Shown in pieces: positions 6,079 to 40,743 of a DNA stretch of 49,148 nucleotides (its first letter is position 1; every line of letters starts with the position of its first letter). Source of the stretch: an uncultured bacterium (GTDB lineage: Bacteria > Desulfobacterota > Dissulfuribacteria > Dissulfuribacterales > UBA3076). Location of the stretch: assembly GCA_965539945.1 (NCBI GenBank), contig CBETWD010000002.1, forward strand, positions 1-49,148. Direction: 5' to 3'. The notes below the pieces were generated by a model that worked only from the letters and a program-made list of their open reading frames with translations, did no database searches and had not been told where the DNA came from. The translations under genes were made by a program, and so were the position numbers.

Positions 6079-7440
6079 CTAAATGCGTTCGAAAAAATGA
6101 CTTAGGTCTTTATCGAGAAAGTGCTTTATCTTTCCAAGGTAGCGGCCATGTGTAATCAATATCTGTCTCCTGGCTTGGTCCTCTATGAGTTTATGTATCC
6201 GGTGTTTCACCCTGTTCCAGAGATCCTTTTTGTAGGCGGTCTCAAGGGGGATCAAGTTATCAAGGTCTTTTAGAGTATTTTTTGTGAATTTGGGAAAAAG
6301 TATCCGTTGAACATACAGAGAAGCTAATGCCACGACCAGCATGGCCCACACAATCGGCCAAAGGAAATGTTCAAAACTCATATTCCCGGCCAGCAGGGCC
6401 CCTGCAAGCGGGGTGTCCGGATAACCGGTTAAAAGATTTATAATCAGATCTCCAAAGAAGAAGGCCAGTATGGCGGCCATACCCCATGTGCGGAGGACCC
6501 CTTTGAATTTATGAATGAATCGTTTTTGGAAAGCGACCATGGCCTCTATTTCCAGGCCAAGTTCCCTTACGACTCGATCCACTTCCTGGAGTATGTGGTT
6601 TAGTCTCATCTTTGGTGCTGAACTCATGGTCTGTTTGAGTTCTTCCCGTTCATTCATCCATGCTTCAAAGCCCGTGGGAGGCACTTTGCCCTCCTGAGGC
6701 GCAAAGGTAAGATATATCCTTGGCATATCCTTTCTGCCTGTCATCTGTGAAAGATTCCAGCACAAGGTCCCATAAGACCTCAAAAGGTCGGACACGCTTT
6801 CGCATTCGTCAATTCGATTCAGTACGTAAATGACCCTGTCTTCTCCGGTGGAGCCGGGGAGAGTACTCCGGATGGCCTGATAAGTTTCCTTTATTGTTCC
6901 TGCCTTGTGGGGATCGAACATCAGGATGATGAGGTCTGCCAGCTTTGCTAGTTCTCCCACTACACCAAGGTAATCATAGCCCCTATCCTTTTCTGTGACC
7001 GAATCCAGCATTCCCGGGGTATCTATGATGGCAAAATCTTGGAGTATGGGAGTATTTGTCACCCTTTTTAAACGCATATGGGATAGAAGGCTTTCACCAA
7101 AGTGCCTCAGGGGAGCAAAAGGGAGACGCTCATCATTTACTACTGTGCCGCCGGGTACTTCTCCCTCCGGTTCGTTGGGCTCTGGTGCGGCCAGGATGGT
7201 AAAACTGTCATCAGTAGGTGCCTGACCTGTGCGCTGGATTTGGCTTCCCAGGATTTCGTTGATAAAGGTCGATTTCCCGGATGAGTAGTTGCCGATTATA
7301 AGGACCACCGGCTTCCATTTAAGGGGAGTAAGCAGGTCCTTGATGTCCAGGCCGTAACGCTCAAAAAGTGGCCCCATCTTGTTCCGCAGTAGTTGTTCAA
7401 GCTCTTTTGTCAGGGTCTCAGCGGCCCTTCCTGTTTCCAT
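6079..7440 (-). CDS. Dynamin-family (EHD-like) GTPase with a C-terminal membrane hairpin
   Basis: 453 aa. G1 is GNYSSGKSTFIN, G3 is IIDTPG and G4 is NRID. A hydrophobic stretch AAILAFFFGDLIINLL...IVWAMLVVALASLYV lies near the C-terminus. Confidence 0.75.
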   Translation of the reverse strand: METGRAAETLTKELEQLLRNKMGPLFERYGLDIKDLLTPLKWKPVVLIIGNYSSGKSTFINEILGSQIQRTGQAPTDDSFTILAAPEPNEPEGEVPGGTVVNDERLPFAPLRHFGESLLSHMRLKRVTNTPILQDFAIIDTPGMLDSVTEKDRGYDYLGVVGELAKLADLIILMFDPHKAGTIKETYQAIRSTLPGSTGEDRVIYVLNRIDECESVSDLLRSYGTLCWNLSQMTGRKDMPRIYLTFAPQEGKVPPTGFEAWMNEREELKQTMSSAPKMRLNHILQEVDRVVRELGLEIEAMVAFQKRFIHKFKGVLRTWGMAAILAFFFGDLIINLLTGYPDTPLAGALLAGNMSFEHFLWPIVWAMLVVALASLYVQRILFPKFTKNTLKDLDNLIPLETAYKKDLWNRVKHRIHKLIEDQARRQILITHGRYLGKIKHFLDKDLSHFFERI

Positions 7441-7924: not shown

Positions 7925-8176
7925 CTAGACCTTTCCGCAGCAGGACCCTGGACCTGCACAGTTCGGGGCCTCTCCGGGGCTGAAACCGCAGCAACTCGTA
8001 TCGCCGGGGCCGGGAAGTCTTGAGCCCTGGGAGCCGGTAAAGGATGAGCTTGAGGATATCAATTTTGTAAGATCTTCAGATCCGCAGGAAGGACACTTCA
8101 CCTCGGGTTGGTTGGGAAATACCAACATCTCGTTAACGTTTCCACAGGCTTCACATCGGTATTCATAGATCGGCAT
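7925..8176 (-). CDS. FmdB-family zinc-ribbon protein with a Cys-rich tail
   Basis: MPIYEYRCEACGN...CPSCGSEDLTKLISS is the CxxC...CxxC FmdB signature. The ATG at 8176 is preceded by AGGTGA. The ORF track extends to a GTG at 8185. Confidence 0.8.
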   Translation of the reverse strand: MPIYEYRCEACGNVNEMLVFPNQPEVKCPSCGSEDLTKLISSSSSFTGSQGSRLPGPGDTSCCGFSPGEAPNCAGPGSCCGKV

Positions 8177-8228
8177 AGCATTCACCTGTTACTTAGTGCC
8201 TGAACGAAAAGGCCGTTCAGGCACAATT

Positions 8229-8313
8229 TTGAATTCTAAATTCTAAATTTTGAATTGAGGAAGAAAGAAATTATTTAATTTAGCATTCAACATTCAAAAT
8301 TCAACATTCAAAG
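8229..8313. repeat. AT-rich 7-8-bp array (TTGAATT / ATTCAAC units in opposing orientation)
   Basis: The two halves read ttgaattctaaattctaaattttgaattg and gcattcaacattcaaaattcaacattcaaag. The units are the same type as at 29325-29418. Confidence 0.65.
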
Positions 8314-8335
8314 TTTTCCCCACGGTGACAAACTT

Positions 8336-8701
8336 TTAATGTTGACACTGATGGCCTTCCTCGCCGTGTCCTTGACATGTGGGGCCTGTTATACCTTTGA
8401 GGCGGTTGGCAAGGAAGTCCTCCATCAACCGCGCCGGGTCCATAGTAGTCACACCTGCAATGACTTGTACCCCGGCAGCCGCTATTAATTCCACGGCCCT
8501 GCCTCCAATTCCTCCACATATTAAATGTGTAGCTCCCAGTTCGTGAAGCCATTGCGGCAGTGAGCCCGGCTCATGGGGAGGAGGTACAAGGAGTTGGGTC
8601 TTTGCGATATTTCCATTCTCAACATCTATTATAGCGAATTGGGCCGCATGGCCGAAATGGCTGCTCAGCATCCCGTTTTCAATTGGTATTGCAATTTTCA
8701 T
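8336..8701 (-). CDS. NifX/NifB-like (dinitrogenase Fe-Mo cofactor family) domain protein
   Basis: 121 aa. MKIAIPIENGMLSSHFGHAAQFAIIDVENG is typical of this fold family. The tail CQGHGEEGHQCQH is rich in His and Cys. The start overlaps the upstream gene's stop by 4 bp. Confidence 0.8.
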   Translation of the reverse strand: MKIAIPIENGMLSSHFGHAAQFAIIDVENGNIAKTQLLVPPPHEPGSLPQWLHELGATHLICGGIGGRAVELIAAAGVQVIAGVTTMDPARLMEDFLANRLKGITGPTCQGHGEEGHQCQH

Positions 8702-9615
8702 GTATTTGATTCCTCTTTCTTTTCCTTATTCTCTTCAGCTAGGGCCTGTGTGACATTAATTACGTTTCTCCCAATTTTTTGAAAGGCGTCTGCTGTATGG
8801 CTGTTGGGATATGAAGCAACAATCGGCCGTCCGGCATCCCCTGTGGTGACGACCCTCGGGTCAACAGGGATGCGACCGAGGAAGGGAATATCCAACTCTT
8901 CAGCCAGTCTCTCTCCACCGCCTTTTTTAAAAATGTCTATAGCCTTGCCGCAGTGTGGACAGATCATGCCACTCATATTTTCTACAATGCCTAAGACCGG
9001 CATGTTGATTTGTTTACAGAAGCTTATGGATTTTCTGACATCCAGAAGTGATACCTCTTGGGGCGTAGTTACTACTATTGCATAGGCGTCGGGTATGGTC
9101 TGAGCCACAGTCATCGGCTCGTCACCAGTCCCCGGTGGTGCATCAATTATCAGATAGTCAAGCTTTCCCCACTCGATTTCGTAAACAAACTGCCTTATAG
9201 CAGATGTCTTGAGGGGTCCACGCCATATAACCGCAGAATCTTTTGTGGGCAAAAGGGGTTCTATAGACATAAATTTCAGGTTGGGCGAGTAGTAAACAGG
9301 TCCAACCGTGCCATCCGGCCGTTGTTGAAGTTCTCCTTTTTCCACACCCAACATCTTGGGCACATTAGGCCCGTGCAGATCTACATCCAGGAGGCCGACA
9401 TAATAATTTTCAAGGGAAAGCCCGATTGCCAGGTTTATGGATACAGTGCTTTTACCAACACCGCCCTTGCCGCTCATTACCATGATTTTATTGTCTATAT
9501 TCCGTAGTTTTTCCTGAATCCTTTCGTCCTGCTCCTCAAGAACAGGATTTGTCATAGGATTTGCTGGTTTTTCCTTCAATCGTCTATTCTCCCTATAATT
9601 AGTTCTTTTGGCCAA
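8698..9615 (-). CDS. apbC: Mrp/NBP35/ApbC-family Fe-S cluster carrier ATPase
   Basis: It has the deviant Walker A SGKGGVGKST and a CPHCG (CxxC) motif. The start is uncertain: TTG at 9615 or ATG at 9555. Confidence 0.9.
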   Translation of the reverse strand: MAKRTNYRENRRLKEKPANPMTNPVLEEQDERIQEKLRNIDNKIMVMSGKGGVGKSTVSINLAIGLSLENYYVGLLDVDLHGPNVPKMLGVEKGELQQRPDGTVGPVYYSPNLKFMSIEPLLPTKDSAVIWRGPLKTSAIRQFVYEIEWGKLDYLIIDAPPGTGDEPMTVAQTIPDAYAIVVTTPQEVSLLDVRKSISFCKQINMPVLGIVENMSGMICPHCGKAIDIFKKGGGERLAEELDIPFLGRIPVDPRVVTTGDAGRPIVASYPNSHTADAFQKIGRNVINVTQALAEENKEKKEESNT

Positions 9616-9684
9616 AATCCTGCGGCCACTGTTAATGATGATGACTAATTTATCCTATTAACGGATATTTTGCACCATGCACTT

Positions 9685-10566
9685 TTACTTTTTCTTTTGA
9701 TTAAGGGCAATCTTTTCTAATTTCTTCCACATTTCTCTGATAGCCATGGCACCTGGCCCGTCTGAGTTTTCTACCAGGGGTCTGCCGGCAACCACGCTTG
9801 ACACGGCGTCGGGATCAAATGGAATCAGCCCCAACATGGAAATTTGTCTTTTTAAACAGGTCTCTTGGATTTTTTCTGCAACTTCCCTGTTCAGGTCTGA
9901 TTTATTTATACATACGCATGTAGGGAGCTTAAAGTGTTCCGCAAGATCTACTACGCGGTTGAGGTCATGGAGTCCGGATGTTGTCGGTTCTGTAACCACG
10001 AGTATCAGGTCAGCGCCGGCAAGAGATGCTATCACAGGACAGCCGATGCCGGGTGATCCATCAACCAGTATCCAATCGGCCTTTATTTCCTCAGCAATGG
10101 CCCTGGTCTCTTTTTTTACCAGGCTGACCAGCTTTCCGGAGTTTTCCTCCCCCATGCCAAGTTGAGCATGGACCATTGGCCCGTAATCAGTATCTGAAAT
10201 AAACCATGAACCGCACAGATTGTCCTTGAGGTTTATGGCCTCTTCCGGGCAAAATTCAGCACAGACTCCGCATCCTTCACAGGACAGGGGATCAACCTCC
10301 GCTGATTCAAGGGTTGTTATTGCACCAAACTGACAAATTTCTTCACAGATCCCACATGCCGTACATAATGATGGGTCCACCTCTGCGGTTACACCGGACC
10401 AGAACTCTGTTTCCTTTTTGATTTTTGGATTAAGCAGCAGGTGTAGATCCGCAGCATCTACGTCACAGTCAGCCAGAACTGTGTTGGGTACAAGTGCTGC
10501 CAGAGAACCAACCACTGTAGTTTTCCCGGTGCCCCCTTTACCGCTCAAGATCAGAATTTCCCTCAT
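9685..10566 (-). CDS. MinD/ParA-superfamily P-loop ATPase with two inserted 4Fe-4S ferredoxin motifs (COG1149-like)
   Basis: It has SGKGGTGKTT plus CTACGICEEIC and CEGCGVCAEFCP. It overlaps the upstream paralog by 4 bp. Confidence 0.88.
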   Translation of the reverse strand: MREILILSGKGGTGKTTVVGSLAALVPNTVLADCDVDAADLHLLLNPKIKKETEFWSGVTAEVDPSLCTACGICEEICQFGAITTLESAEVDPLSCEGCGVCAEFCPEEAINLKDNLCGSWFISDTDYGPMVHAQLGMGEENSGKLVSLVKKETRAIAEEIKADWILVDGSPGIGCPVIASLAGADLILVVTEPTTSGLHDLNRVVDLAEHFKLPTCVCINKSDLNREVAEKIQETCLKRQISMLGLIPFDPDAVSSVVAGRPLVENSDGPGAMAIREMWKKLEKIALNQKKK

Positions 10567-11396
10567 TGTACAAGTTCCTCCAGTAGGGACTCAAAGCTGC
10601 TGCGCAGGTCCGGCCGGCTTATAATAAGGGGCTCTCCTCTGGCGTAACCTTCGGCAATCCTACGGTCAAATGGGATATTTAGATGTATAGGTATATTTTC
10701 CTGCCTGCACCACGTCCCAACATCTCCATTCCCCAAGTCTGAGCGGTTAAGGATTACACCAAAGGACCGCTTGAGCTTTCTGAGCATTCCCACTGCCAGC
10801 TTGAGGTCATAGAGGCCAAAGGGCGTGGGCTCGGTAACAAGCAATGTATAGTCTGCATCATTCACAGTGGCGATCACCGGGCACGAGGTGCCTGGCGGCG
10901 AATCCAGAATAACCAGGCATTCGGGCGATGTTTCTGCCTCTGCCTTTACCGCCTTTATGAGAGGAGGAGACATGGCTTCGCCTATCCTTAATTTGCCTTG
11001 CACAAAGGATATCCCGTTGGCATGGCCTTTTTCGACAAACCCGATTTCCCGTTCTGTTTCAGCCAGAGCATCCTCAGGGCAGATCAGAAAGCAGCCACGG
11101 CAGGAGTGGCAGAGTTCCGGAAAGGTCATTATGATTTTGTTAAAGACCGTAATAGCATTGAATCTGCATATATCACGGCACTTGCCGCAATATGTGCAAT
11201 TGCTCTCAATTACAGATGGGATTGTGAGGGTGCATCGTTTTGTCTGTTCGATCGAAGGGCTAAAAAAGATATGGGCATTTGGTTCCTCCACATCGCAATC
11301 CAGGAGCTGAACAGGTCCCTTAGCTGCCAAAGCCAGGCTTACTGAGACTATAGTCTTGCCGGTCCCACCCTTTCCACTTGCCACTGCAAGTTTCAT
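10563..11396 (-). CDS. MinD/ParA-superfamily P-loop ATPase with 4Fe-4S ferredoxin motifs (paralog)
   Basis: It has SGKGGTGKT plus CTYCGKCRDIC and CHSCRGCFLICP. Confidence 0.88.
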   Translation of the reverse strand: MKLAVASGKGGTGKTIVSVSLALAAKGPVQLLDCDVEEPNAHIFFSPSIEQTKRCTLTIPSVIESNCTYCGKCRDICRFNAITVFNKIIMTFPELCHSCRGCFLICPEDALAETEREIGFVEKGHANGISFVQGKLRIGEAMSPPLIKAVKAEAETSPECLVILDSPPGTSCPVIATVNDADYTLLVTEPTPFGLYDLKLAVGMLRKLKRSFGVILNRSDLGNGDVGTWCRQENIPIHLNIPFDRRIAEGYARGEPLIISRPDLRSSFESLLEELVQ

Positions 11397-11431
11397 AATA
11401 ATTTCCTTATCCTTATCTGTCCTTAAGTGCC

Positions 11432-12025
11432 TTAACTTTCTGAGTCGTTGCCCATACCACGGCCTGTTCCGCTACCGCCACCCATTCCGCCGCCGCCTCC
11501 TCCGCCCATGCCGCGACCGCCGCCGCCCATGCCGCGACCTTTGCATCCTCCTCCCATTCCGCGACCTCCTCCGCCGATTCCGCGACCTCTGCCTCCTCCT
11601 CCCATACCACGGCCGCCGCCTCCCATGCCGCGGCCTCCAAACGATGGATCAAAGGTTTTGCCTGAATTTGCCGCAGCACTGGGACCTTTGTCCGGTGATG
11701 GAATCGTCCCCTTTCTATACTGTTCTATAGCTTCCCCGACAGTTCCGCTTACGTTTGATATCATCTTGATTCCACTTGCCTGGAGGACTTCAAAGGCTTT
11801 GGGTCCTATTTGTCCTGTCAAGACTGTCTGAGCACCTGATCCGGCTACAAGAGTGGCGGCATTAATACCTGCTCCCTGGGCGGCATCCTGGGCTGCCAAG
11901 TTATCGATAACGTTGACTATATTTCCTGATTCCGTGTCCACTATTATGAAATAGCCGGCCCTTCCAAACCTGGGGTCTACAGCAGAGTCCAGGTCTTTTC
12001 CAGTTGCACTAATCGCGATTTTCAT
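11432..12025 (-). CDS. NifX/NifB-like domain protein with a C-terminal Gly/Arg/Met-rich repeat tail
   Basis: The N-terminal ~115 aa (MKIAISATGKDLDSAVDPRFGRAGYFIIVD...) are NifX-like. The tail is FGGRGMGGGGRGMGGGGRGRGIGGGGRGMGGGCKGRGMGGGGRGMGGG.... Confidence 0.8.
   Translation of the reverse strand: MKIAISATGKDLDSAVDPRFGRAGYFIIVDTESGNIVNVIDNLAAQDAAQGAGINAATLVAGSGAQTVLTGQIGPKAFEVLQASGIKMISNVSGTVGEAIEQYRKGTIPSPDKGPSAAANSGKTFDPSFGGRGMGGGGRGMGGGGRGRGIGGGGRGMGGGCKGRGMGGGGRGMGGGGGGGMGGGSGTGRGMGNDSES
11450..11635 (-). repeat. Imperfect ~24-bp coding tandem repeat encoding (GGRGMGGG)n
   Basis: The unit CCnCCnCCCATnCCGCGnCC recurs on the plus strand. The overlapping Pro-rich and Ala/Glu-rich ORFs in other frames are shadows of this repeat. 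Confidence 0.8.
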
Positions 12026-12623
12026 ATGATTTTCTCCTTTTTATCTTTAAGTACCTTAGTAATTATTTTCGCGTTTTTTCCGGCAGAAAATTTTGAAACA
12101 CAATCAATTTTTTATCTTCAAACCTGTTTGGTTTCGGCTTGTCCGAATTAGTTAATAATTCTTTCTGCCTGCGACTTAGCTCAGGGCCGTTCTTCTATAT
12201 TACTTTTTCATGTTTTATTCAATGGCGACACAAAGATTTGCGGGATTTTTTATATTTAATTTCCTGTAATTTATAAGAAAATAAAGCCTGATTTTATTAA
12301 ACATGAATCTCATTTATAAAAGTCTATGATTCTCATAACTATAGGTAACTATTCATAATATAGTTAAATTCCACAATTTTTCCTTAAGAGGTTCCAAATC
12401 AGGAACCCAGTTAAAGGAAAGTCATCCCCAATTAATTGCAAGCCAGTCTCTATAGCAATTTACAAATTATGTCCGGACTGGTACCTTGTCAATAGTTTTT
12501 TTTGAGCGTATGATCTTTTCTGATAGCAGTAATGTCAGAAATTTCTTGTACTTTTATGGCATTGGGTGCTATTGCTTTTAAAGGATCTTTTACGTCTGAG
12601 ATAATAACACTGGAGGAAGGATT

Positions 12624-13979
12624 ATGGAAAAGGGTGAAAAACTGGTAGTTATCGGCTGTGGCGGTGTCGGCGGTCCTGCCGCAATGTTGTCAAAAAAACT
12701 TATGCCGGATGTTGATGTAACCATTATTCGGAAAGAAGAACGATTTATCGTTAGGTGAGCTTTGCCTCATGTTGTGGCCGGTCTGGCCACTGTTGATTCC
12801 ATCACAAATCCAGGTGCCATGTTCAAAAAAGCAGGTATTACTGACATTATTACAGAAGTAACCCACGTGGATACTGAAAAAAAGATAGTTGAATTATCAA
12901 ATGGTACTTCTATTGATTATGACAAGATTATTTTAGGAACCGGGGCAAACCAAGTGATACCTGAATTTGAAGGGGTTGACCTCGAGGGAGTATTCACTTT
13001 AAGGAACGTACCGGATGCAGAAAGAATAACAAGTTTTATGGAAGAGAAAAAGGCCAAAAACCTTGTTTTCATAGGGACAGGATTTATTAATCTTGAACTG
13101 GCGGCATTGCTTTCGGTAACCAAGCCGGATTACTACAATATAACAATTATTAAGTATATGACATTAGGACCTCCTCTGGCCCTTATGCTTGACGCGGACA
13201 TGGCGATCAAGATACAGGAACGTATGGTTGAAAAGGGTCTCAATATGAATATGGAGTCCAGGGCCACAAGGATTCTGGGCCGGGATGGAATAGTCACAGG
13301 CGTGGAACTTGAAACCGGCGAAAAAATCGATGCAGATATGGTCATGGTTTCAGTGGGTGCAAGGCCGAATCTGGAGCTGGCAAAGGATATGAACCTCGAA
13401 CTTGGAAAGTTCGGCGTCAAGGTGAATAAATATCTGGAAACATCAAATCCGGATATCCTTGCAGGTGGAGATTGCGTTGAAAAAATTCATTTTGTGACCA
13501 AAAAACCTACATCTTCGCTACTACGTGGCCCTTCAGTTATTCAAGGACGTCTTGCAGCCAAAAGACTGGCAGGGTATGAAATTGAATTTCCCGGAGTATT
13601 AAACAACTCCGCGGTCAGAATCTTTGACAAATATATAGCTGCTACAGGCTTGACAGATAAGCAGGCACAAAAGGAGGGGTTTGAAACTGTCAGCGTTGTA
13701 GTAAATTCCAGAAGTAAGCATGGTATGATACCAGGCGTCAAACCCTGGACGCTGAAGCTTGTCTTTGACAGAGAGACTCAAAGGCTGCTGGGTGGACAGA
13801 TTATCAGTGATTGTGGTGCACCTGTGAAGGAGATCGATACGATCAATGCCCTGATTATGGGTGAAAAAACCATCCCTGAATTAACCACATTTATGTGCGC
13901 GGGAAATCCCGACTGTTCCTCTGAACCGAGTCTTGAACCTATTACAGTCGCTGCGGAGCAAGCGCTACAGAAATTGTAA
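12624..13979 (+). CDS. Pyridine nucleotide-disulfide oxidoreductase (CoA-disulfide reductase/NADH oxidase-like), probable selenoprotein with UGA-Sec at 12756-12758
   Basis: The ATG at 12624 is preceded by GGAGG (12612-12616) and is in frame with track ORF 12762-13979. The N-terminus VVIGCGGVGGPAA is a GxGxxG motif. The single in-frame TGA aligns with the active-site Cys: RFIVR-U-ALPHV here versus TVLVP-C-GIPYI in the paralog. Confidence 0.8.
12774..12790 (+). promoter_or_regulatory. Candidate bacterial SECIS apical hairpin
   Basis: GUGGCC-GGUCU-GGCCAC has a 6-bp stem and a 5-nt loop and starts 15 nt after the in-frame UGA. The loop begins GGUC, like the apical loop of the E. coli fdhF SECIS. 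Confidence 0.55.
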
Positions 13980-14291: not shown

Positions 14292-15644
14292 TCAGCAATT
14301 CAGTTTTTTGACTATTACTTCCACTGCCATCAAAAAAGGATATGTTATCGGTGATCCTGTAAGAAGCGGATGAGTTCCGATCTGGGCTGTGAGCGCAGAA
14401 TAAACAGTCATCCTATTCTGGATGATAATGCTGATAAAATTGATAAGTTCGCCTGTGCCGCCTCCGCCGATAACCGAACCGCCGAGCAACAAACCGGATT
14501 TGGGACTGGCTATAAGCTTTATAACCTGTTTTTCGGCTCCGGGTAATGTTCCCGGGTGCTTAAAAATTCCTTCAAAAGTTCCTGTTACTATATCAAACCC
14601 CTCTTTTTTTGCCTGATTTTCAGTTATTCCTGCTGCACCAAAAGCTGTATCTCCTATGGCAGTACAAAATATCGGAATCGTCCCATTAAATGTCTTCATA
14701 AAAGCTATATTATATAGATTCATACCGGCAATTCTTGCTTCCACGCATGCTGTTGAAGCAAGCATAAGTCCTGTCTTTCTTCTCAAGAGAAAATCATATT
14801 TTGCAGCACAATCGCCCACAGCAAAAATATCAGTATTTTTTTCCGTGCGCATATATTCATCTACCCTGATAAAACCCATATCATTGAGTTCCAGGCCGGA
14901 TTTTTCCGCAAAAGCTGTATTTGGTCTGTATCCGGTGGATAAGATCACAGCATCTACATCGATCTTTTCGTCGTTATTTAACAGGACTCCGGCAGCTTTT
15001 TTATTTCCCAAAATTTCCTTAACACCGCTTCCGGCCTTTATGTTGATCCCTCTTGATATAAGAATTTCCTCGGCTCGAATCGCGAGTTCATCATCAAAAG
15101 CAAGGGATAAAACATGAGGCAAAAGTTCAACTATAGTCACATTTTTGCCCAGTTTCCCAAGTTCGTCAGCGACCTCAACACCGATAAAACCGCCGCCTAT
15201 GACAGCAATGTTTTTACATCCGTCAAGTTTTTCCTTAACACCATCCAGATACTCTTTGTCTTTTGGTATTAAAAAAACATTTTCAAGATCAGCTCCTTTC
15301 AACCATCCAGGCACAGCAGGTGTTGAGCCTGTTGCTATAATAAGTTTTTCAAAGCTGATTTCTTTACCGTCTACGGTCTTACAGGTTTTGTTCTCCGCAT
15401 CAATTTTTTCAACTTCACCTATTTGGATTTTTACACCTGCATTTTCCAAAGGAGCATCAGGTATCACATTTTTATCACTTGATTTAAGCGTGCCGAATAT
15501 ATACGGAATTCCGCACGGAACAAGAACAGTTGATTCTTTTCTTATCACCGTAACTTCCTTGTCCGGATAAAAAGATTTTCCGGTTCTTGCAGCCACAATA
15601 CCTGCTGCACTCCCTCCGATTACAAGCACATCTGTTTTTCCCAT
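14292..15644 (-). CDS. Pyridine nucleotide-disulfide oxidoreductase (CoADR/NADH oxidase-like), Cys form
   Basis: 450 aa. It has VLVIGGSAAGIVAA (FAD), the active-site context LVPCGIPYIFG, and a second GGGFIG dinucleotide motif. The RBS is AGGAGG. Confidence 0.9.
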   Translation of the reverse strand: MGKTDVLVIGGSAAGIVAARTGKSFYPDKEVTVIRKESTVLVPCGIPYIFGTLKSSDKNVIPDAPLENAGVKIQIGEVEKIDAENKTCKTVDGKEISFEKLIIATGSTPAVPGWLKGADLENVFLIPKDKEYLDGVKEKLDGCKNIAVIGGGFIGVEVADELGKLGKNVTIVELLPHVLSLAFDDELAIRAEEILISRGINIKAGSGVKEILGNKKAAGVLLNNDEKIDVDAVILSTGYRPNTAFAEKSGLELNDMGFIRVDEYMRTEKNTDIFAVGDCAAKYDFLLRRKTGLMLASTACVEARIAGMNLYNIAFMKTFNGTIPIFCTAIGDTAFGAAGITENQAKKEGFDIVTGTFEGIFKHPGTLPGAEKQVIKLIASPKSGLLLGGSVIGGGGTGELINFISIIIQNRMTVYSALTAQIGTHPLLTGSPITYPFLMAVEVIVKKLNC

Positions 15645-16252: not shown

Positions 16253-16471
16253 ATGCCTAGAATGGATGGAACAGGACCTGCCGGAACAGGTGCTCCAGGT
16301 AGAGGACTTGGTCCCTGCGGTAAAGGAACACAGGCCCAACCCGAAAGATTTACCTCCGCACAAGACAATTTTAGAAGCGGGGGACGCGGTGGCGGCTTTG
16401 GTCGGGGGCGTCGACAAAGGCGCAGAATTTCCTTTGTAGGTTTTTCTGGTAACGATCCAGCCAACAATTAA
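16253..16471 (+). CDS. DUF5320-like small Gly/Arg-rich protein
   Basis: The N-terminus MPRMDGTGPAGTGAPGRGLGPCGKG matches my recollection of the DUF5320 N-terminal signature. The RBS AAGGAGGTG is very strong. The tail is GGRGGGFGRGRRQRRR. Confidence 0.75.
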   Translation: MPRMDGTGPAGTGAPGRGLGPCGKGTQAQPERFTSAQDNFRSGGRGGGFGRGRRQRRRISFVGFSGNDPANN

Positions 16472-16482
16472 TCTCAACACAG

Positions 16483-16642
16483 GTAAGCGTTCACAGGGCA
16501 CCGCATCTGCTTTGTTGTCGGGCGCTTGAAGTACAGGGAGTACGCCTGTGTACCCGTGCGCCTCGCATCTGCAGCACCCTGTAAACGCTTACAGTTCGGT
16601 GGGTTGCGGTAAAACGGGCGTTGTAATCCCGTGAACGGTTAC
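16483..16642 (+). mobile_element. MITE copy 2 (160 bp, forward), 8-bp TSD CAACACAG at 16475-16482 and 16643-16650
   Basis: The ends are GTAAGCGTTCAC...GTGAACGGTTAC and the flanking direct repeat is perfect. The element lies 4 bp after the stop of the DUF5320-like gene. Confidence 0.9.
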
Positions 16643-17365: not shown

Positions 17366-17453
17366 GCCCGGGTGGTGAAATTGGTAGACACAAGGGACTT
17401 AAAATCCCTCGGTATAATATACCGTGCCGGTTCGACTCCGGCCCTGGGCACCA
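17366..17453 (+). tRNA. tRNA-Leu (anticodon UAA), CCA encoded
   Basis: It folds as a cloverleaf. The acceptor stem is GCCCGGG/CCTGGGC and the D arm is GTG..CAC. The anticodon stem AGGGA/TCCCT carries the loop CTTAAAA. There is a long variable arm, and the T arm is GCCGG-TTCGACT-CCGGC. Confidence 0.95.
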
Positions 17454-17626: not shown

Positions 17627-19324
17627 CTAACTACCAAACCTTACTGCATCGGCACAGGTACTTGTAGAGCCGCCTTCAGAGACGATTACTATCTTTGCTG
17701 TGCCGCTAAAGGTGTAATTGCCCAGTACATTCCATTTCCCGCCATTGGCCTTTTGGTTTACCTCTACGGTATCAAGCAGGGTATCCCCGTCGTATATTCT
17801 TATAGGGACACCGGTGTTTCGACTCGGCCATTCTGTCCACCACAGCGAGACTTCACAGGATCCGTTGATAGGAGCACTAAAGGTGTATGTGGCGCCTGCT
17901 GTTCTGCTGTAAAGCGATTCAGCTCCATAGGGATTTTCACCTCCGGATTTATACCAGTTTCCAGTAGATGATGTACCGGCTTCATCGTTATCGACGATCA
18001 CCTCTGAGGGAGGAGTTGGAGGAGGAGTTGGAGTTGGAGGTGGGGGAGCAGTAGCAGTACCAAACCTTACTGCATCGGCACAGGTACTTGTAGAGCTGCT
18101 TTCAGAGACGATTACTATCTTTGCTGTGCTGCTAAAGGTGTAATTGCCCAGCGCATTCCATTCCCCGCCATTGGCCTTTTGGTTTACCTCTACGGTATCA
18201 AGCAGGGTATCCCCGTCGTATATTCTTATAGGGACACCGGTGTTTCGACTCGGCCATTCTGTCCACCACAGCGAGACTTCACAGGATCCGTTGATAGGAG
18301 CACTAAAGGTGTATGTGGCGCCTGCTGTTCTGCTGTAAAGCGATTCAGCTCCATAGGGATTTTCACCTCCGGATTTATACCAGTTTCCAGTAGATGATGT
18401 ACCGGCTTCATCGTTATCGACGATCACCTCTGAGGGAGGAGTTGGAGGAGGAGTTGGAGTTGGAGGTGGGGGAGCAGAGTCCACCTGAGCAAGGTATATT
18501 TCCGCTGAATTACCCTCACCAGCCATCCAAGCGATATAATTTCCGCTGATACAGGGGTATCTGTCATCCAGGTTATTATTGGTAACCTGTTCAAAGCCGT
18601 TTTGACCATTTTTGCGAATAATGATATCCCAGCCCGAACCATCATTCCACATTGAGACGGTTAGATCTCCATCAGTCTGCGGGCTGTCCTTCCAGATGAA
18701 ACCTTCAGAGGCTTCCTGTGTAGTTCCTTGAGAGATATCGTGAATAAACAAGACGCTGTTATCCGCCCCATCGGTCTGAATCCAGATAACAGACTCGCTG
18801 TTAATCCTGGGGGAACTGTCATCCTGTTGATTGTGAGTGAGTTGATCGTGTTGTCCTGTATTAATGTCATAAATCTTAATTTCTCCAGGTTCAACTGAGT
18901 CTGTAACCTGGTGTGATGCCCATACAACCCGGCCGTCTGCAATCTGTGGAGGTGAATCCACGTTACTATCGTTGGTGATTTTAGTGGTTTCCTTGGTCGC
19001 TATATTATATCGAAAAATCTCACCGCCTTGATTGCAGGCACCGAACCAGACCACATATTCACCGTCTGTCCGGGGTGAAATGCTGTCGTAGTTATTGTTC
19101 GTAATCCGGGTAGTCTCTTCATCTTCTATGTTGTATAAGAAGATCTGCCAGTGGCCGTTCTCATGCCCTTGCCAGACCACATAATCGCCATTGATATTTG
19201 GAAAACTATCATTATAGGAATTTGATGTAACCTGGGTTGTGGTGGTGTCAGCCTGGGCTGAGACATTCAAGCCCATGACAGTGATAAATGATATTATTAA
19301 TGAAATAAGTATTTTTCTTTTCAT
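17627..19324 (-). CDS. Secreted beta-propeller-repeat protein with two tandem near-identical C-terminal beta-sandwich (golvesin-C-like/carbohydrate-binding-like) modules
   Basis: The signal peptide is MKRKILISLIISFITVMGLNVSAQA. About six repeats of type D..SP.I.G.YVVW follow. Two 142-aa modules come next, each preceded by a PPPPTPTPPPTPPSE linker. The module family name is from memory and unverified. Confidence 0.7.
   Translation of the reverse strand: MKRKILISLIISFITVMGLNVSAQADTTTTQVTSNSYNDSFPNINGDYVVWQGHENGHWQIFLYNIEDEETTRITNNNYDSISPRTDGEYVVWFGACNQGGEIFRYNIATKETTKITNDSNVDSPPQIADGRVVWASHQVTDSVEPGEIKIYDINTGQHDQLTHNQQDDSSPRINSESVIWIQTDGADNSVLFIHDISQGTTQEASEGFIWKDSPQTDGDLTVSMWNDGSGWDIIIRKNGQNGFEQVTNNNLDDRYPCISGNYIAWMAGEGNSAEIYLAQVDSAPPPPTPTPPPTPPSEVIVDNDEAGTSSTGNWYKSGGENPYGAESLYSRTAGATYTFSAPINGSCEVSLWWTEWPSRNTGVPIRIYDGDTLLDTVEVNQKANGGEWNALGNYTFSSTAKIVIVSESSSTSTCADAVRFGTATAPPPPTPTPPPTPPSEVIVDNDEAGTSSTGNWYKSGGENPYGAESLYSRTAGATYTFSAPINGSCEVSLWWTEWPSRNTGVPIRIYDGDTLLDTVEVNQKANGGKWNVLGNYTFSGTAKIVIVSEGGSTSTCADAVRFGS
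17632..18477. repeat. Tandem duplication, 2 x 426 bp period (17632-18051 and 18058-18477 aligned)
   Basis: The two units differ at only 6 positions. All 6 differences fall in the first ~115 bp of the unit, and the remaining ~305 bp are identical. Confidence 0.95.
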
Positions 19325-40584: not shown

Positions 40585-40743
40585 GTAAGCGTTCACAGGG
40601 CACCGCATCTGCTTTGTTGTCGGGCACTTGAAGTACAGGAAGTACGTCTGCGTACCCTCCGCCTCGCATCTGCAGCACCCTGTAAACGCTTACAGTTCGG
40701 TGGGTTGCGGTAAAATTGGCGTTGTAACCCCGTGAACGGTTAC
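40585..40743 (+). mobile_element. MITE copy 3 (159 bp, forward), 8-bp TSD GAAATTAG at 40577-40584 and 40744-40751
   Basis: The ends are GTAAGCGTTCAC...GTGAACGGTTAC and the flanking direct repeat is perfect. The element lies 85 bp upstream of the ftsE start. Confidence 0.9.

Follow-up and report, generated by a model that had tools for sequence, protein, structure and literature searches.

A candidate orange-protein complex laid out as a single operon in an uncultured Dissulfuribacterales bacterium

The orp gene set of Desulfovibrio, whose founding paper is reportedly Fievet 2011, is the closest described counterpart of the six genes that are the subject of this article. They occupy positions 7925-12025, on the minus strand, of the window, by which we mean the whole stretch of DNA analysed: the 49,148 nucleotides of contig CBETWD010000002.1 (C2 in our numbering) of assembly GCA_965539945.1, a 2.6-Mb genome of 317 contigs that is 92% complete and comes from an uncultured bacterium of the Dissulfuribacterales (UBA3076). 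We read these genes as the orange-protein (ORP) complex encoded in a single operon and working as an ATP-gated machine that handles iron-sulfur (Fe-S) or metal-sulfide species, and put the probability of this reading at roughly 60%. The gene identities are a separate matter, on which we are highly confident: an Orp8-type protein (g1), an Orp4-type and an Orp3-type ATPase (g2 and g3), an MrpORP (Orp9) split into two genes (g4 and g5), and an accessory zinc ribbon (g6).

According to the ORP literature, a complex of Orp3, Orp4, Orp5, Orp8 and Orp9 has been purified from D. vulgaris Hildenborough (PMC6345978, PMC8359166), with Orp3, Orp4 and Orp8 co-purifying (PMC6345978). Orp3 and Orp4 are MinD-like proteins with two [4Fe-4S] motifs each, Orp5 is a small protein homologous to a [2Fe-2S]-binding protein, Orp8 is the orange protein, a single Di-Nase domain, and Orp9, or MrpORP, joins an Mrp to a Di-Nase domain (PMC6345978, PMC3897727, PMC8359166). 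In vitro, MrpORP reloads apo Orp3-Orp4-Orp8 with Fe-S clusters (PMC6345978). The genes are arranged in the operons orp5-orp4-orp3 and orp7-orp8-orp9, which flank orpR (DVU2103-DVU2109; PMC6345978, PMC3897727, PMC8359166). OrpR, a sigma-54 activator, has an Fe-S PAS domain and works only when the redox potential is low (PMC3897727, PMC8359166), and the orp genes are expressed only under that condition (PMC8359166). Our literature search found nothing newer than 2021 on the Orp3/Orp4/Orp8 system, and no functional study of DUF5320 or COG1149 beyond the works cited here.

Three further systems share components with this set. The orange protein of D. gigas is reported to hold a non-covalent linear [S2MoS2CuS2MoS2]3- cluster (cited in Pardoux 2019, PMC6345978). 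IssA of Pyrococcus furiosus binds thioferrate and consists of an IPR003731 domain with a cationic glycine-rich tail containing one Cys (PMC5524996); the tail is proposed to wrap the anionic thioferrate, and an uncharacterised 'IssX' clade shares the layout (Vaccaro 2017, PMC5524996). A preprint of October 2026 (10.64898/2026.10.19.760177) describes a ParA-clade NTPase that carries a 4Fe-4S ferredoxin insert between its beta2 and beta3 strands and whose partners are NifX, a Gly-rich protein with a charged C-terminal helix, ARMT1, HTH, radical SAM and MBL proteins, and proposes a role in metal-cofactor biogenesis. As far as its description goes, ATPase architecture and NifX partner are those of the window and the Gly-rich protein is DUF5320; that description does not mention ORP by name. 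ARMT1 also lies next to one of the loci surveyed below (L088), while the HTH, radical SAM and MBL genes are absent from the window.

Gene identities and conservation

All six open reading frames between 7925 and 12025 were confirmed. A preliminary description of the stretch, made from its letters, had pointed out six co-directional genes with two ATGA-type overlaps, and both overlaps are present: the g2 stop and g3 start share 4 bp at 10563-10566 (..GTACAATGAGG..), the g4 stop and g5 start 4 bp at 8698-8701 (..AATACATGAAA..). Pfam and NCBIfam likewise back its domain calls of two NifX-like proteins, two MinD-ferredoxin ATPases, an Mrp and an FmdB-like protein. Its statement that the neighbourhood has no assigned function is wrong: the orp gene set already bears a name and MrpORP is an NCBIfam equivalog. 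The physiological role was still called unclear in 2021 (PMC8359166). The ORP identity was found because the NCBIfam MrpORP model NF041136 matched g4 and g5, which led to the ORP literature.

With the D. vulgaris complex the locus shares the two MinD-ferredoxin ATPases, the orange-protein-type NifX protein and the Mrp and Di-Nase kinds; a DUF5320-type small protein is encoded in the genome, and both hosts are anaerobes belonging to one phylum. The arrangement differs. D. vulgaris has two divergent operons, whereas the window has one co-directional operon that lacks a sigma-54 promoter and has no OrpR beside it; its MrpORP is split, its orange protein is tailed, an FmdB zinc ribbon is added, the operon holds no Orp7-like gene, and DUF5320 is displaced by 4.2 kb.

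The first gene, g1 (11432-12025, minus strand, 197 aa), begins with an orange-protein (Orp8/ORP)-type NifX-like domain (residues 1-111; PF02579 Nitro_FeMo-Co, 84.2 bits) and ends in a tail that we take up below. Residues 2-111 align with residues 6-115 of the 'ORP' structure PDB 2WFB, the D. gigas orange protein, at E 3.4e-25 with 52 of 110 positions identical (47%). The alignment covers the 2WFB chain over its whole length, so that g1 differs from it by 86 extra C-terminal residues. The IssA-type structure MTH1175 is the weaker match (1.3e-18). In a Maridesulfovibrio metagenome-assembled genome (MAG) with a canonical set, the Orp8-like protein is 47% identical to g1, and the two share a 59-row clade (support 83) in a FastTree phylogeny of 157 NifX-domain rows, a tree with few columns and many open forks; 47 of the 59 rows lie upstream of an ATPase pair. 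The genome also encodes a tail-less 112-aa orange-protein paralogue on contig C64 (L010:1465-1803), 71% identical to the g1 domain and adjoining a desulfoferrodoxin-family gene.

The genes g4 (8698-9615, minus strand, 305 aa) and g5 (8336-8701, minus strand, 121 aa) correspond to the two halves of MrpORP. The former, an Mrp/NBP35 Fe-S carrier ATPase, is the P-loop half: it has the features of the Mrp/NBP35/ApbC family, namely PF10609 (333.6 bits), a deviant Walker A motif (GKGGVGKS at residue 49) and a CxxC (CPHC at residues 219-222), the last already noted in the preliminary description. It matches NF041136 over positions 2-262 with 384.2 bits, the cut-off being 450. The latter, a stand-alone Di-Nase (NifX-like) domain (PF02579, 66.4 bits), matches positions 265-364 with 111.5 bits and is the C-terminal half. 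Jointly they span positions 2-364 of 365, and where a fused MrpORP is one protein of at least 450 bits, the halves here are separate but adjacent. Compared with MrpORP proper (Orp9/DVU2109, Dde_3202), the Walker A and CxxC motifs are the same, whereas the two-gene form and the altered g5 motifs differ. In the tree, g5 belongs to a clade of 46 rows (support 99) that takes in every one of the 8 Mrp-fused domains as well as the C-domain of the Maridesulfovibrio MrpORP; g5 meets the 2WFB chain at E 0.0078 only. Together with its kin in L015 and L016, g5 reads HFGHA at the place of the HFGHC that most clade members have, and its C-terminal end is a His/Cys/Gly-rich stretch in place of CDH; in Pardoux 2019 (PMC6345978), HFGHC and the terminal CDH are the proposed ligands of the Di-Nase [3Fe-4S] cluster.

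The last gene, g6, is an FmdB-family zinc ribbon on the minus strand (TIGR02605, 58.3 bits against a cut-off of 31.3; PF09723 Zn_ribbon_8, 55.8 bits). The open reading frame covers 7925-8185 (86 aa), and the start is probably the ATG at 8176 (MPIYEYRC; 7925-8176, 83 aa), since the TIGR02605 profile begins at residue 4 of the 86-aa frame. The shorter form has 9 Cys in 83 aa, with a CxxC...CxxC pattern at Cys 8, 11, 28 and 31 and a Cys-rich C-terminal tail.

How general is this set of genes? With an alignment of g3 relatives as query we collected 449 tblastn-confirmed stretches and took the best 80, whose ATPases are 45-62% identical to g3; gene classes were assigned with our own jackhmmer profiles on the same strand within 3 kb (5 kb for DUF5320). 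The 80 loci come from Thermodesulfobacteriota, Chloroflexota, Planctomycetota, Acidobacteriota, Bacillota, Omnitrophota, Armatimonadota, Elusimicrobia, Synergistaceae and Bacteroidota, and from one Methanocellaceae archaeon; g3 has few named homologues, and these bear the labels Desulfobulbaceae, Desulfobacterales or Thermodesulfobacteriota. Two ATPases occur in 70 of the 80 loci, and in 42 of the 43 that are well flanked, that is, with 3 kb or more to either side. One or more NifX genes are found in 66 (42 of 43 well-flanked) and two or more in 51 (37 of 43). A separate Mrp accompanies them in 30 (16 of 43), an Mrp-NifX fusion in 8 (5 of 43) and an Mrp of either kind in 38 (21 of 43), so the split form seen in the window is commoner than the fused one; a zinc ribbon lies within 3 kb in 26 (17 of 43). 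In all 70 loci with two ATPases the A-type (g2-like) gene precedes the B-type (g3-like) gene, and 23 of 70 other two-ATPase loci have the exact 4-bp overlap between the pair, which we therefore regard as a family trait and not as chance.

The complete six-gene order of the window is repeated in L015 and L016. Closer to the organism, 10 kin loci from relatives keep the order g1-g5 in nine cases and g6 after g5 in seven; 26 of 31 relatives have the ATPase, 14 of 17 same-genus genomes among them, as do 93 of 151 genomes sampled across the phylum. The neighbourhood is thus conserved, as the preliminary description had supposed. The Maridesulfovibrio MAG combines an OrpR-like gene (PAS, Sigma54_activat, HTH_8) with a pair of NifX-like genes and a 417-aa fused MrpORP that scores 538 bits, above the NF041136 cut-off, and in a second place it has the series DUF5320 - ATPase - ATPase - CGGC - Zn_ribbon_8.

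The presence of two PF02579 proteins, g1 and g5, might suggest a nitrogenase accessory locus whose NifX-like proteins carry NifB-co or FeMo-co precursors. The preliminary description had set this aside on the ground that there are no nitrogenase genes, which is correct for the window and wrong for the genome: nifH (452 bits, above the cut-off) is on contig C85 and NifB on C71, with four Oxidored_nitro matches distributed over both and a NifX-like gene besides. These nif genes lie on contigs other than that of the operon and come with their own NifB and NifX-like gene, both of which fall outside the ORP and MrpORP clades of g1 and g5. In the phylum sample, nifH (a match at E<=1e-90) was found in 33 of 151 genomes; a hand cross-tabulation gives 21 with ATPase and nifH, 72 with the ATPase only, 12 with nifH only and 46 with neither. 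Hence 72 of 93 ATPase genomes have no nifH match, which bears out the independence from nitrogenase claimed earlier, and genomes that lack the ATPase carry nifH as often (12 of 58) as those that possess it (21 of 93). The linkage to and dependence on nitrogenase that characterise the FeMo-co carriers NifX and NafY were not found here, and a nitrogenase function of the operon appears very improbable to us. The nif region is an observation in its own right: C71 and C85 (L012; C85:6036-6857) carry nifH, four Oxidored_nitro matches, NifB (radical SAM with a NifX domain), a NifX-like gene of 105 aa and a binding protein resembling ModA, and the organism is probably a diazotroph.

The ATPase pair

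The centre of the operon is formed by g2 (10563-11396, minus strand, 277 aa), an A-type MinD-fold ATPase and by position Orp4, and g3 (9685-10566, minus strand, 293 aa), a B-type MinD-fold ATPase and by position Orp3. Both combine a CbiA/ParA P-loop domain with Fer4 in Pfam, and both carry a 2x[4Fe-4S] ferredoxin insert; they are the single ATPase pair of this genome. The two CxxCxxCxxxC motifs that the preliminary description saw in each protein are C67/70/73/77 and C96/99/102/106 in g2, and C68/71/74/78 and C96/99/102/106 in g3. Ten Cys are conserved per subunit, these eight and two more: the Cys of a DCD motif, present in 100% of 63 A-type and 91% of 77 B-type sequences, and that of a GCP motif (Cys172/Cys176), 7 residues after the Walker-B Asp, present in 98% and 100%, respectively.

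An AlphaFold2 model of g3 has a predicted local distance difference test score (pLDDT) of 93.3. Its nearest solved folds in Foldseek are MinD, FlhG, FleN, Soj, ATPase-type HypB, NifH and BchL, with MinD on top (E about 1e-13) and 1g20_H at 8e-9. None of the Foldseek or sequence matches listed covers P-loop fold and ferredoxin insert together. The pair displays the features of the MinD/ParA (SIMIBI) class, with a MinD-like fold, a KGGxGK[ST] P-loop and a predicted ATP-sandwich dimer. The dimer was obtained by the pairwise complex prediction that had been suggested as a check: g2 with g3 gave ipSAE values (interaction prediction score from aligned errors) of 0.65, 0.64 and 0.65 against 0.00 for the best control, with alignments of 27 rows each, a partner pLDDT of 88 and at least 92% of contacts agreeing between runs. 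Among 157 solved complexes, 116 attain the ipSAE mark that we used, as do 2 of 215 mismatched pairs. The predicted interface takes in the two P-loops, residues 168-172 and 172-176 with Cys172 and Cys176, and, on either chain, the second Fer4 region (97-105).

In these features the pair resembles MinD as well as NifH, BchL and CfbC: the MinD-like fold and the deviant Walker A are the same, as is the ATP-sandwich dimer, predicted in our case. With the NifH group it also shares the Cys 7 residues after the Walker-B Asp. The same spacing occurs in the NifH of this very genome (YDVLGDVVCGGF), where the GCDPK motif stands opposite the DCD of the ATPase pair; in NifH, the Cys at this spacing ligates the [4Fe-4S] cluster. 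This switch-II comparison rests on motif spacing judged by eye, because hhalign, run with the alignment of B-type ATPases against that NifH, aligned the C-terminal 60 columns alone. Unlike NifH-type proteins, the pair has its clusters in an inserted ferredoxin domain and no equivalent of the second NifH ligand Cys, and unlike either MinD or NifH types it has no known MinC/MinE or catalytic partner.

These likenesses leave room for another use of the same architecture. As an ATP-dependent reductase, g2/g3 would act like NifH, BchL or CfbC and give very low-potential electrons to some enzyme, perhaps one of the neighbouring flavoproteins of the CoA-disulfide-reductase (CoADR) type or a sulfur or persulfide reductase, with the NifX-like proteins as maturation factors only. 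Besides NifH and BchL among the structural matches, the invariant Cys spacing and the clusters at the predicted dimer interface, the surroundings fit this proposal: both in the window and in 5 of the 10 kin loci, the gene running divergently from g1 encodes a CoADR-type flavoprotein, and all three of the kin flavoproteins tested have a C-terminal rhodanese domain. Across the 80 loci, where the flavoprotein was not looked for, no catalytic partner is conserved; the partners that are conserved there are NifX, Mrp, DUF5320 and the zinc ribbon. We consider a reductase unlikely on balance.

A second proposal takes the MinD likeness literally and has the ATPases place the septum or a cargo, the Fe-S clusters serving as redox sensors only. 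MinD, FlhG, FleN and Soj are indeed the nearest solved folds of g3, and a dynamin-family GTPase lies beside g6, as it does in the kin loci L112, L114 and L117. The literature on D. vulgaris adds that OrpR inactivation leads to morphological defects, that MrpORP is polar and that the proteins are 'putatively involved in cell division' (PMC8359166, PMC6345978); the link is indirect and is called a hypothesis by its authors (PMC8359166). What speaks against a positioning role is the company that these ATPases keep, since the classified partners at the surveyed loci are NifX-like, Mrp and DUF5320 proteins (MinC/MinE and ParB were not searched for), together with the ten conserved Cys per subunit and the natural NifX-DUF5320 and Mrp-NifX fusions, which point to metal-cluster chemistry. 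We hold this proposal to be improbable.

DUF5320, the glycine-rich tail and a possible mechanism

The DUF5320 family is the partner whose association with the ATPases is strong in the family and loose in the window. The gene in the window, a short form (16253-16471, plus strand, 72 aa, pI 11.9), scores 31.2 bits against PF17253 (cut-off 27), spanning positions 1-62 of 99 without the C-terminal helix, and is the sole match of the DUF5320 profile in the whole genome; the preliminary description had named this gene and the two flavoprotein genes nearby, and all three are there. A jackhmmer search seeded with this protein had no match in the 80 loci, and the profile used for them was seeded with a 94-aa protein of Maridesulfovibrio. 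It recovered a free DUF5320-like gene on the same strand, up to 5 kb away, in 41 of 80 loci. Of these free genes 47 lie upstream and 2 downstream of the ATPase pair, with 496 bp as the median gap. Our own profile finds a DUF5320-like tail fused to NifX in 10 of 80 loci, so that free or fused forms occur in 47 of 80 loci and in 33 of the 43 well-flanked ones. Among sampled sequences, Pfam matched 20 of 20 free genes to PF17253, 18 of them above the cut-off, and found all 5 fusions to be PF02579 plus PF17253. Because such natural fusions exist, the ORP-type NifX and DUF5320 families are tied together. Examples are L019:7511-8113, L021:6987-7544, L034:4339-5184, L039:7054-7608 and L076:1170-2162, the last with two NifX domains.

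The DUF5320 link drawn in the preliminary description therefore stands for the family and only loosely for this locus. No small Orp5-type gene heads the operon, and DUF5320 stands off it; going by position, the window's DUF5320 probably corresponds to Orp5. Each of the four same-genus loci that are long enough has a 69-73-aa match to the DUF5320 profile at 18-30 bits, and in L110, L112 and L114 this gene has the second flavoprotein on one side and a PNPOx-like gene on the other.

The g1 protein brings a cationic element of its own. Its tail (11435-11692, minus strand, residues 112-197) is Gly/Arg/Met-rich: 45 of its 86 residues are Gly, 8 Arg, 3 Lys and 7 Met, and it contains the only Cys of g1, C161. 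The pI is 11.55 for the tail and 4.85 for the domain. The underlying DNA consists of imperfect 21/48-nt tandem repeats, and tandem repeats are found at 11489-11637. Tails of 25-140 aa follow g1 in 10 of 10 kin loci, and among the 157 NifX rows of the tree Gly/Arg tails are carried by 13 of 59 in the ORP clade, 8 of 52 in the other rows and none of 46 in the Di-Nase clade. This is the layout of IssA and IssX, a domain of some 110 residues (IPR003731/PF02579) followed by a disordered cationic Gly-rich tail with the only Cys, except that IssA has an aromatic-rich tail and the tail of g1 is Met-rich and nearly free of aromatics.

From homology, conservation and the one structure prediction, a mechanism of four steps can be drawn up for the complex, to which we give even odds. 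A g4 dimer would hold a bridging [4Fe-4S] cluster on CPHC and load the ferredoxin inserts of g2/g3, a transfer shown in vitro for Desulfovibrio. The two ATPases are predicted to form an ATP-sandwich heterodimer with their second clusters and the invariant switch-II Cys at the interface, and ATP binding and hydrolysis would control whether low-potential electrons, or a cluster, can pass between g2/g3 and the NifX-like proteins. Finally, g1 and g5 may hold an anionic iron-sulfide or metal-sulfide species non-covalently, and the cationic Gly-rich tail of g1 or the free DUF5320 may steady this polyanion. A metallocluster delivery or electron-transfer machine is also what the preliminary description had suggested, and we find that a sensible reading.

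A more specific version is conceivable, in which the ORP cluster uses ATP to load and unload a store, either an IssA-type thioferrate-like iron-sulfide or a thiometallate. Here the ORP-type NifX domains would nucleate a linear anionic chain that Gly/Arg tails and free-standing DUF5320 wrap; g2/g3, acting in a NifH-like manner, would supply the electrons that release [4Fe-4S] units, and Mrp and Di-Nase would pass these on. Sulfide would come from the CoADR/rhodanese flavoproteins, and the Mo-Cu cluster of the orange protein would be a look-alike rather than the native ligand. We judge this store doubtful.

Returning to the ORP complex as a general Fe-S or metal-sulfide handling machine, a number of points weigh against it. 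The ORP set of this organism is known from genes alone, and the investigators of the D. vulgaris complex call its physiological role unclear and favour a link to cell division (Fievet 2021, PMC8359166). The equation of Orp5 with DUF5320 and of Orp3/Orp4 with the B-type and A-type ATPases rests on the order of genes in the Maridesulfovibrio MAG and on the published operon order, and in the window DUF5320 is 4.2 kb off, on the opposite strand, behind two flavoprotein genes. The tail of g1 does not match PF17253 in Pfam and has 2 aromatic residues (both Phe) in 86, compared with 14 in 70 for IssA (PMC5524996). Lacking the HFGHC Cys and CDH, g5 may bind something else, or nothing. The pass of g2 with g3 in the complex prediction may stem from likeness to solved MinD dimers. 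Finally, the gene classes of the 80 loci are those of our own profiles, of which the Pfam check covers a sample.

Regulation, surroundings and wider meaning

Upstream of g1 lies an AT-rich divergent intergenic region of 598 bp (12026-12623). In the sequence upstream of g1 we found no sigma-54 element (TGGCAC-N5-TTGC at up to 2 mismatches), no GG-N10-GC pair on the operon strand and, as the best match to the consensus of a Fur box, one with 7 of 19 mismatches; there are no inverted repeats in 12026-12626. Between 7500 and 12800, Rfam gave nothing credible, neither a Moco riboswitch nor any other, and a tRNA at 17366-17450 alone reached the gathering score. The genome does encode an OrpR-like activator, on contig C18 (C18:14974-16848), with a PAS Cys motif (CHEVFDGPFCGSRC) of the form C-x8-C-x3-C; it is the sole sigma-54 activator of the genome that aligns over its full length with the OrpR-like protein of Maridesulfovibrio (314 bits). 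A divergent 133-aa NifX-like gene (L014:1378-1779) is found about 2 kb upstream of this activator among FtsX-like and LolA-like genes.

Within the operon, the 150-bp spacer between g5 and g6 contains a hairpin (8196-8224) with a perfect 11-bp stem (GTGCCTGAACG...CGTTCAGGCAC), flanked by AT-rich direct repeats (gaattttgaatgttgaat); no T-run follows it on the operon strand, the only one being on the plus-strand side. Contigs from RNA libraries (four libraries from three studies: cold seep, marine sediment, metagenome) cover parts of all six genes at 92-99% likeness, and single ones extend over the g3/g2 junction (X1 and X3, 10091-10649) and the g5/g4 junction (X1, 8607-8838; X7, 8232-8909). Such contigs prove neither transcription nor a single transcript, and we take them as a weak hint that relatives express the g1-g6 genes in sediments. 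The bin 12228-12391 has no RNA cover in any of the 4 runs, of which X3, X5 and X7 leave many bins empty. We discounted the very high depth at 11408-11571, which is uninformative in low-complexity Gly-repeat DNA, and do not read three listed joints as real, since they have short sides or single contigs.

Divergent from g1 runs flavoprotein 1 (12624-13979, plus strand), of the CoA-disulfide-reductase/NADH-oxidase type, which is probably a selenoprotein. It has an in-frame TGA at 12756-12758 (FIVR-TGA-ALPHV) where its paralogue has Cys (VPCGIPY), followed by a GC-rich hairpin at 12774-12790; read with TGA as U, the protein has 451 aa and its Pyr_redox_2 score rises from 129.7 to 151.6 bits, and a tRNA-Sec gene with anticodon TCA is on contig C58. 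Flavoprotein 2 (14292-15644, minus strand, 450 aa), a CoADR/Nox-type Pyr_redox_2 protein in the Cys form, lies beside DUF5320 and the PNPOx-like gene in the same-genus loci L110, L112 and L114. The CoADR-rhodanese flavoproteins of the kin are 566 aa long (L113:12322-14022, L116:11938-13641, L117:11914-13611).

Directly downstream of g6, the dynamin-family GTPase noted above (6079-7440, minus strand, 453 aa) has a hydrophobic C-terminal part. The rest of the window is ordinary chromosome with a Lon-like protease, RuvABC, YebC, FtsEX, PolA and PurA. At 17627-19324 (minus strand) it encodes a secreted-looking protein of 565 aa with two Golvesin_C domains, the second half of which is a near-repeat of the first, the small overlapping frames 17718/18144 and 17753/18179 being identical. 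The 15-mer GGGCACCGCATCTGC occurs twice on the plus strand (16496-16510 and 40598-40612), and its one-base variant TGGCACCGCATCTGC at 219-233 on the minus strand; the 15-mer could belong to a dispersed repeat.

The ORP complex is widespread in anaerobes, as the 93 of 151 sampled genomes of the phylum and loci from more than 10 phyla attest. The system itself was already known, having been named 15 years ago. Particular to the copy described here are the single operon, the split MrpORP with altered motifs, the tailed orange protein and the lack of OrpR/sigma-54 control. The comparison supplies four handles, each testable in Desulfovibrio: the predicted A/B heterodimer, whose interface contains the clusters and an invariant Cys; the NifX-DUF5320 fusions; the restriction of Gly/Arg tails to non-Mrp NifX clades; and the recurrent CoADR/rhodanese neighbour. 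Heterodimer, fusions, tails and neighbour all point to the handling of an anionic metal sulfide.

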